A stretch of DNA of 1,090 bases from Naegleria gruberi (taxonomy: Eukaryota), in the NCBI GenBank assembly GCA_000004985.1, contig GG739566.1; one strand, given 5' to 3'. Position numbers and translations under genes: made by a program. How positions within the stretch are numbered: the stretch's first letter is position 1; every line of letters starts with the position of its first letter. The notes under the pieces are model-generated. The model made no database searches, had not been told where the DNA came from, and saw only the letters and a list, made by a program, of their open reading frames with translations. Shown here in pieces: positions 1-1,090 of this stretch.

Positions 1-1089
1 CGAATTACTTGGTGAGCTAATGTCTTCAGAACTAGGAGTTGCAATAACTTTGGATTCCTTTTGGACATTCTCTTCATTGTTTTCGGAATTCTTTGATTTT
101 TCTTTAAGTGAACGTTCATATCTTTGTCTTCTAGACAAACCATCTGATTCCATTGGAATATGTTCAAGAATTGGAGATTCGGATGATTGGGATGGTGTTT
201 CAGTTGTCATAGTCTTCTTCTTTTTCTTAAAGACGTGGCCTCTAGCTCTAGTCAATGCACTTAACTTATTTTTCTTATTAGTCTTCTTAGTTGGCTTTTT
301 ATCCTTCTTTCCCTTCTTATCAGTCTTCTTTGCACCAGTCTTCTTGTCAGTCTTTGATTTTTTACCGGTTTTCTTTTCAGTTGATTTCTTTGATTTTTTA
401 CCAGTTTTCTTTTCAGATGATTTCTTGGCAGACTTATCCTTCTTGGCAGATGGCTTCTTGTCAGACTTTTTAGTTGACTTGGTGACATCTTTCTTTGTTG
501 TCTTTCCCTTCAAACCAGTCTTCTTGGCATTAGTCTTTACACCAGACTTATCAGTGGTTTTCTTGGCAGTCTTCTTGGTATCAGTCTTTGGCTTACCAGT
601 TTTATCAGTTGACTTCTTGGCATTAGTCTTATTTTGAACAGACTTGGTTGTCATAGCTGGAGTCTTCTTTTCAGGAGCAGACTTTACTGTCTTTGCATCA
701 GTCTTCTTATCAGTAGTTTTCTTGGCACCAGTCTTTGGCAGACCAGATTTATCAGTTGACTTCTTGGCATCAGACTTCTTGGTATCGACAACAGGTTTAG
801 CTGGCTTGGTATCAACTGGCTTCTTTGTTGGTTTAGCAATTTCTTTTGGTGTGGCATCTGCCTTCTTTTCAGCTGCTTCAGTCTTGGCAACAGATTTCTT
901 TTCAACAGTTGGTTGTGCTACTGGTTTAAGGGCAGCTGAGGCAGATGATGATTGTTTCTTTGGAAGAACAGGACCTACAAAATCTTTATCACCTTCTTTT
1001 GGGAAAGATTTAGCAGGGTTCTTATTGTTGACAACAATTGGTGAGCCAACGGAAGCTGGCTTTGGTTGAACGGTTGGTTTAGAAACTGG
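1..1089 (-). CDS. Partial CDS, open at both ends (no start or stop in the window), encoding a lysine-rich, low-complexity repeat protein. It is probably an intrinsically disordered basic protein, for example a nucleolar/chromatin-type protein or a basic surface protein. The family is not identifiable without a database search.
   Basis: I checked every triplet in the minus-strand frame (codon starts congruent to 1 mod 3 on + coordinates) by hand and found no tta/cta/tca on the + strand across all 363 codons. The other two minus frames contain stops, for example tta at 5-7. Codon usage is coherent and biased: AAG much more frequent than AAA, ACT/ACC, CCA, GGT, CAA, GAA, and AGA for Arg. Composition is about 99 Lys in 363 aa. 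The imperfect peptide repeats keep the reading frame (periods of 36, 93 and 147 nt are all multiples of 3). The opposite-strand ORFs encode Phe/Leu/Val-rich nonsense typical of antisense shadows of an AAG/GAA-rich gene. Confidence 0.75.
355..426 (-). repeat. Direct tandem repeat of a 36-nt unit, two copies at 355-390 and 391-426, with 34/36 identity. It encodes a 12-aa lysine-rich unit (approximately EKKTGKKSKKST, two copies) inside the CDS.
   Basis: Direct comparison of tgattttttaccggttttcttttcagttgatttctt (355-390) with tgattttttaccagttttcttttcagatgatttctt (391-426) shows only two mismatches, at 367/403 and 381/417. Confidence 0.8.
519..780 (-). repeat. Imperfect in-frame repeats of a longer lysine-rich unit. 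Nucleotide matches are spaced 93 and 147 nt apart, and the peptide units are of the form xAKKSTDKxGxPKTxxK.
   Basis: The identical 20-mer atcagttgacttcttggcat occurs at 604-623 and 751-770, a spacing of 147 nt (49 codons). The 10-mer agtctttggc occurs at 583-592 and 730-739, also 147 nt apart. The 18-mer cttcttggcattagtctt occurs at 520-537 and 613-630, 93 nt apart. The translated units align as KKSDAKKSTDKSGLPKTGAK versus NKTNAKKSTDKTGKPKTDTK, about 13/20 identical. Confidence 0.65.
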
Positions 1090-1090
1090 T

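Follow-up and report, generated by a model that had tools for sequence, protein, structure and literature searches.

The question raised by this stretch of Naegleria gruberi DNA is whether it belongs to a genuine gene and, if so, what kind of protein that gene encodes. The stretch analysed here, 1,090 nucleotides of contig GG739566.1 (hereafter the window), was translated on both strands. On the minus strand, the frame running from window position 1089 to position 1 contained 363 codons and no stop, as an earlier note on this DNA, made from the letters alone, had described; the remaining five frames contained 2, 9, 17, 23 and 56 stops. The A+T content of the window was 61.3% (GC 38.7%), with a strong strand asymmetry, T accounting for 42% of the plus strand. 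The note's further claim that such a frame was extremely unlikely to arise by chance was borne out by mononucleotide shuffling of the window, which yielded a fully open frame in 0 of 20,000 shuffles. A simple hand estimate from base frequencies put the probability of a fully open frame on the A-rich strand at about 4e-11. The GC3 of the frame was 0.325, and its frequent codons were AAG, CCA, AGA, GGT, ACT, CAA and GAA. Start-to-start spacings among the direct-repeat families were multiples of three in 31 of 31 cases, so the repeats stay in codon register.

The one fully open frame, the shuffles, the codon-position composition, the in-frame repeat spacings and homology to two independently predicted proteins (see below) together show that the window comes from the interior of a true coding gene, read from the minus strand. 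Both termini of this gene lie outside the window, in agreement with the earlier note: no stop was found at the 3' end, and the homologue XP_002668031.1 extends 97 residues further upstream of the point at which the window starts. Frame 2 of the plus strand (window 2–1090), with two stops and an F/L/V/S-rich product for which no supporting homologue was found, was rejected as the antisense mirror image of the AAG/AAA/ACT-rich codons of the coding strand. Rfam, promoter and terminator scans of the window gave nothing above background. The features of the frame are collected in Table 1.

Table 1. Features of the window and of the protein fragment it encodes; residue 1 corresponds to window positions 1089–1087.
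Feature	Window position	Strand	Description
Coding frame, 363 codons	1..1089	-	Based on translation, composition, shuffles and homology continuing upstream
Homologous region, residues 1–66	892..1089	-	Sole region with detectable homologues; aligns with XP_002668031 (86%) and XP_002667955 (57%)
Conserved core motif, residues 27–46, KSFPKEGDKDFVGPVLPKKQ	952..1011	-	KSFPKEGDxxFVGPVxPKKQ; 17/20 positions invariant in the three members
K/A/P/E/T-rich linker, residues 47–105, KPVAQPTVEKK..KPTKKPVDTKPAKPVVDTKK	775..951	-	Partly alignable to XP_002667955 (KPVVDTKKS)
Hyper-basic low-complexity core, residues 106–275	265..774	-	39% Lys, net charge +51; degenerate in-frame K/T/S/D/G repeats (KKT, KKS, TDK, KTG)
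Tandem duplication, 36-nt (12-codon) unit	351..422	-	94–95% identical; KKS[S/T]EKKTGKKS twice; TRF score 138
84-nt dispersed in-frame repeat, copy 1, NKTNAKKSTDKTGKPKTDTKKTAKKTTD	550..633	-	81% identity, spacing 147 nt
84-nt dispersed in-frame repeat, copy 2, KKSDAKKSTDKSGLPKTGAKKTTDKKTD	697..780	-	Contains an incidental LPKTG
Higher-complexity near-neutral tail, residues 276–363	1..264	-	Net charge +3; K5 run, Ser/Glu-rich stretch, SRRQRYERSLKEK
Predicted charged alpha-helix, residues 320–345, RRQRYERSLKEKSKNSENNEENVQKE	55..132	-	AlphaFold2; mean pLDDT 91 for residues 321–330

An exhaustive HMMER (phmmer) search of 1.84 billion cluster representatives returned exactly two relatives of the window protein: XP_002668031.1 (EFC35287, hereafter P0001; E = 5.6e-27, 86% identity over query residues 1–82) and XP_002667955.1 (EFC35211, hereafter P0002; E = 3.5e-4, 57% identity over query residues 1–112). 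Each is annotated as 'predicted protein, partial [Naegleria gruberi]' and forms a singleton cluster. The same two proteins, and only these, were recovered from 5.8 billion clusters with a family profile built from the window protein, P0001 and P0002 without their low-complexity sequence. Judged by these matches, the window is a member of a very small orphan family that is so far known from three fragments, all of them from Naegleria. P0001 and P0002 represent the 5' portion of the gene, with a signal-like segment and proline-rich repeats, and end where the lysine-rich region begins. The window appears to be the middle and 3'-ward part of this orphan heterolobosean gene and adds about 280 residues absent from both relatives, namely the lysine-rich domain and the C-terminal helix. 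Hence, what is new is the fragment that extends the family by these residues; the family itself was already deposited and is uncharacterised. The presence of indels and a divergence of 14% make the window a different allele, paralogue or strain copy with respect to its relatives.

No known domain was found in any of the three members. The window protein had no match in Pfam or NCBIfam at E ≤ 1, nor any in PHROGs or among PDB sequences. P0001 had none in Pfam at E ≤ 10, and for P0002 the sole Pfam match was sub-threshold and unrelated (Adeno_E3_14_5, E 1.7), with only sub-threshold noise in PHROGs. The earlier note could place the protein in no named family and suggested that it may be poorly characterised or lineage-specific; the finding of just two relatives, both unnamed, in 1.84 billion representatives and 5.8 billion clusters supports this.

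The direction in which the note had proposed to look, fungal and Lactobacillales genomes, was not supported. The only relatives are from N. gruberi, and 185,579 prokaryotic genomes, one for each species, contained no true relative when scanned. Megablast of the window against plasmid and phage collections returned nothing, exact 37–41-mers of the window were absent from prokaryotic species genomes, JGI metagenomes and IMG/VR, and the family profile found no relative among viral and metagenome contigs. An origin as a surface or nucleoid protein of bacteria (Lactobacillales) or fungi, with an LPKTG pentapeptide suggesting a sortase substrate, is for these reasons highly improbable, although the codon preferences of the frame would also suit yeasts or lactobacilli and an LPKTG is indeed present at residues 117–121. 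The exact and protein-level searches of prokaryotic genomes, plasmids and phages speak against this origin, as do the empty NCBIfam search, the exclusively eukaryotic homologues and the lysine-rich, hydrophilic sequence, free of any membrane span, that follows the pentapeptide.

The sortase-recognition-like LPKTG itself (window 727–741, minus strand) is internal to one copy of the 84-nt repeat, and the corresponding position in the other copy reads KPKTD. As a sortase signal it was dismissed as a chance occurrence, given the eukaryotic gene and the hydrophilic context.

The prokaryotic scan produced a single match, in a Clostridia MAG (CANRDJ010000011.1), where a 12-residue C-terminal tail, EGDPDFVGPVQP, is carried by a small TrbC/VirB2-like membrane protein. 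Because the search pattern itself fixed most of this match, it was rejected as a probable coincidence. The locus (9271–10968) contains four tandem genes whose products are small membrane proteins of the TrbC/VirB2-like kind with a common ADEKAEYK-type motif, and the product of the second gene (9638–10096) has EGDPDFVGPVQPPQDFDL at its end, a sequence reminiscent of the core motif of the Naegleria family.

The composition of the window protein is strongly skewed. Lysine accounts for 99 of the 363 residues (27.3%), threonine for 12.1% and serine for 11.6%, and there are no W or C, one Y, three F, nine L and six I, in line with the roughly 27% lysine and the near absence of hydrophobic residues that the earlier note had pointed out. 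Threonine and serine together make up 24% of the protein and locally up to 32%. The net charge is +66 and the pI 10.3. No hydrophobic span was found in the window protein, the maximum 19-residue hydropathy being 0.32. In the Uversky charge-hydropathy plot the normalised hydropathy of 0.337, compared with a boundary value of 0.479, places the protein on the disordered side. AlphaFold2, run on the single sequence, returned a mean pLDDT of 49 and a pTM of 0.20, with the helix at residues 320–345 as the sole predicted secondary structure of the fragment; because the model was built without an alignment, its low scores support disorder only weakly, though they are consistent with it. Both predictions thus agree with the description of the protein as polybasic and largely disordered, and it is probably a polycationic, low-complexity and disordered chain. 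The predicted helix could serve as an interaction module. It lies in the C-terminal 88–90 residues, for which no relatives were found in the 5.8-billion-cluster database, among plasmids and phages by tblastn, or in Pfam.

The term 'repeat protein' used in the earlier note applies only loosely, since the repeats are degenerate K/T/S/D/G-rich units and most are 61–84% identical. The 36-nt tandem pair is 94–95% identical and the 84-nt dispersed pair 81%, with the others at 61–84%. The far higher similarity of the 36-nt pair points to a recent in-frame tandem duplication and is a sign of continuing repeat turnover. Comparison of the two 84-nt copies gave 10 non-synonymous and 2 synonymous codon differences, from which it follows that the repeats conserve composition and not sequence.

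The excess of non-synonymous differences would also be compatible with a non-functional origin, be it a decaying pseudogene, a frame that arose from repeats and stays open owing to its skewed composition, or DNA of some unsequenced organism that contaminated the Sanger library. Such an origin would account for a family found only on orphan scaffolds of about 1 kb, seen neither in any other proteome nor on larger scaffolds and represented in the databases by two singleton clusters from one tiny contig each. It would likewise fit the lack of a full-length copy in any annotated Naegleria proteome searched, and the C-terminal residues without relatives. Against it stand the 363 codons with zero stops in only one of six frames and the indels and repeats, all of which preserve the frame. 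Moreover, over the 20 non-low-complexity residues of the core, 85% of positions are invariant in three copies that otherwise diverge by 14–43% and differ by indels, which indicates purifying selection. The base composition and GC3 of the window are also consistent with Naegleria, whose genes have a low GC3 (PMC11702301). We therefore regard a non-functional or contaminant origin as improbable.

The known distribution of the family may have its cause in the assembly. The N. gruberi NEG-M assembly is Sanger-based and comprises 40.9 Mb in 1,977 scaffolds, with a GC content of 35% (PMC9928731). All known family members are on scaffolds of about 1–1.4 kb, and P0001 and P0002, on contigs of 1,421 and 1,085 nt, respectively, both run off the scaffold end. 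With its GC content, its GC3 and its length of about 1 kb, the window fits a mini-scaffold of this assembly. The proline-rich and lysine-rich repeats, together with multiple similar copies, suggest that the family collapses or fragments during assembly, and this is probably why the gene is seen only on unassembled mini-scaffolds. More generally, low-complexity multi-copy genes can be stranded on such mini-scaffolds and missed in proteome comparisons.

The location of the protein was assessed from the composite of the three fragments, in which a hydrophobic N-terminal segment is followed by PPPVAQPVSRP repeats, the core, a K/A/P linker, about 170 residues of K/T/S repeats with 39% lysine, and the charged helix. 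The N-terminal segment lies upstream of the window and was read from two automated partial gene models on other contigs; it runs MIKPRRSNFS-LLIGVVLVCVIAFLSMY-AHA/GKG in P0002 and is partly present in P0001. Residues 9–27 of P0002 have a mean Kyte-Doolittle hydropathy of 2.6, with KPRR before them and AHA-GKG after them, and YAHAGKG is conserved in both proteins. A signal-peptide pattern of n-, h- and c-regions, ending in A-H-A/G, is accordingly seen in P0002 and in part in P0001, outside the window. Based on the basic n-region, the hydrophobic core of about 17 residues and the small residues at positions -3 and -1, we infer that the segment is either a cleavable signal peptide or a type II anchor. 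By hand count, the charges flanking the segment in P0002 are about +4 on the N side and +2 on the C side, a balance that favours an N-in, C-out orientation.

Since the relatives begin with this secretion-signal-like segment, a disordered polycation that is secreted or exposed at the surface and attaches to polyanions through its charge appears likelier than a nuclear DNA binder, and we assign the former reading a probability of about 0.42. In the mechanism we propose, the proline-rich and Lys/Thr/Ser-rich parts of the protein would be exported by means of the N-terminal signal peptide or type II anchor. The exported domain would be a flexible, possibly O-glycosylated, disordered polycation, and its candidate polyanionic partners would include the amoeba's own surface coat, cyst-wall polysaccharide and the surfaces of bacterial prey. 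Fast evolution of the repeats, with their composition kept, would be expected for a charge-driven, non-stereospecific binder.

The signal-peptide-like start of the relatives and the proline-rich repeats that follow it speak against the role that the earlier note had listed first, that of a nucleic-acid binder in the manner of H1, KKE/D proteins or HU tails; as far as can be predicted from sequence, the same two features favour the note's other proposal, a highly charged protein of the surface or matrix. An intracellular polybasic binder of nucleic acid or ribosomes could take two forms: a soluble protein of the nucleus or nucleolus, similar to H1 tails or KKE/D proteins, or a protein anchored in the ER or nuclear envelope with its lysine-rich domain in the cytosol or nucleoplasm, as in p180/RRBP1. 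Polylysine tracts are classic features of nuclear localisation and nucleic-acid binding, and the window protein has 39% lysine over 170 residues, a net charge of +66, a K5 run and many NLS-like clusters. Its predicted disorder is as in H1 tails, and an N-terminal anchor followed by a basic repeat domain is reminiscent of the general layout of p180. However, no linker-histone, HMG, Nop or other domain was matched at E ≤ 1, and the lysine-rich core, with 8–12% D+E, differs from KKE/D tails and is T/S/D-rich, not A/P-rich like H1. In addition, the basic n-region, hydrophobic core and AXA of the relatives, with their charge balance, favour export of the C-terminal part, and a proline-rich stalk after a signal peptide is typical of extracellular proteins. 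Overall, we consider an intracellular binder the main rival of the exported polycation, but less likely than it.

If the exported polycation is the correct reading, the three fragments may sample a multi-copy, fast-evolving, Naegleria-specific family of exported disordered polycations that standard assemblies fragment, a broader proposal that we offer tentatively and hold to be rather doubtful. Such a family could contribute to the structure or adhesiveness of the surface coat or cyst wall; alternatively, it could act as a polylysine-like antibacterial or prey-capture factor of this bacterivorous amoeba. A literature search on lysine-rich, cyst-wall or secreted low-complexity proteins of Naegleria found nothing pertinent, and we know of no molecular characterisation of Naegleria surface or cyst-wall proteins. 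If the secretory reading is right, the family would provide a first molecular handle on a Naegleria extracellular polycation. The genus includes the pathogen N. fowleri, but direct medical relevance is doubtful because no orthologue was found outside N. gruberi. Otherwise, the window would be a fragment of an ordinary lineage-specific low-complexity ORF; orphan ORFs of this kind are abundant in protist genomes.

Finally, the window protein was compared with known systems of similar composition or layout. With the C-terminal tails of linker histone H1 and the bacterial H1-like tails of Hc1, AlgP and mycobacterial HupB it shares very abundant lysine, low sequence complexity, disorder as predicted and a strong positive charge, and from these features electrostatic binding of polyanions would be expected. 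Unlike these proteins, it has neither a winged-helix domain nor an HU fold, and no sequence similarity to them was found. The residues that accompany lysine are T/S/D/G and not the A/P of H1 tails, proline amounting to only 0–5% of the lysine-rich core, and the relatives of the window carry a secretion-type N-terminus that H1-type tails do not have. Identity as a linker histone was rejected, as the globular winged-helix domain (Pfam Linker_histone) was not found in the window protein at E ≤ 1 or in P0001 at E ≤ 10. The nucleolar KKE/D-repeat proteins (tails of Nop56, Nop58 and Cbf5) were rejected on the basis of the 8–12% D+E, the net charge of +51 and the absence of a Nop or pseudouridine-synthase domain. 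An LPXTG sortase-anchored protein was likewise rejected: more than 240 hydrophilic residues follow the LPKTG, no 19-residue segment exceeds the hydropathy maximum given above, and no NCBIfam anchor model was matched.

The ribosome receptor p180/RRBP1 resembles the family in that a hydrophobic segment at the N-terminus precedes a long stretch of basic, repetitive and disordered sequence; no sequence similarity to the window protein was found in the search of 1.84 billion representatives. The two differ in predicted topology, since the acidic or neutral N-flank of p180 places its repeats in the cytosol, whereas the basic KPRR N-flank and AXA of the Naegleria family predict the opposite. A different layout is offered by proline-rich and mucin-like matrix glycoproteins, a class that includes hydroxyproline-rich glycoproteins, Lys-rich arabinogalactan proteins and protist cyst-wall proteins with low-complexity spacers. 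Here the likeness extends to the inferred signal peptide, the proline-rich repeats, the Thr/Ser-rich low-complexity organisation, the rapid evolution of the repeats and the restriction to a single lineage. It is a likeness of architecture and composition only; the family lacks SP(n) and AP/SP glycomodules, lectin and Cys-rich domains and any known GPI signal, and the lysine content of the window protein, at 27–39%, is far higher than that of typical mucins. True homology links the window to XP_002668031.1 and XP_002667955.1, with which it has the core KSFPKEGDxxFVGPVxPKKQ in common, as well as the start of the lysine-rich region, and by this measure it is a member only of that unnamed N. gruberi family.
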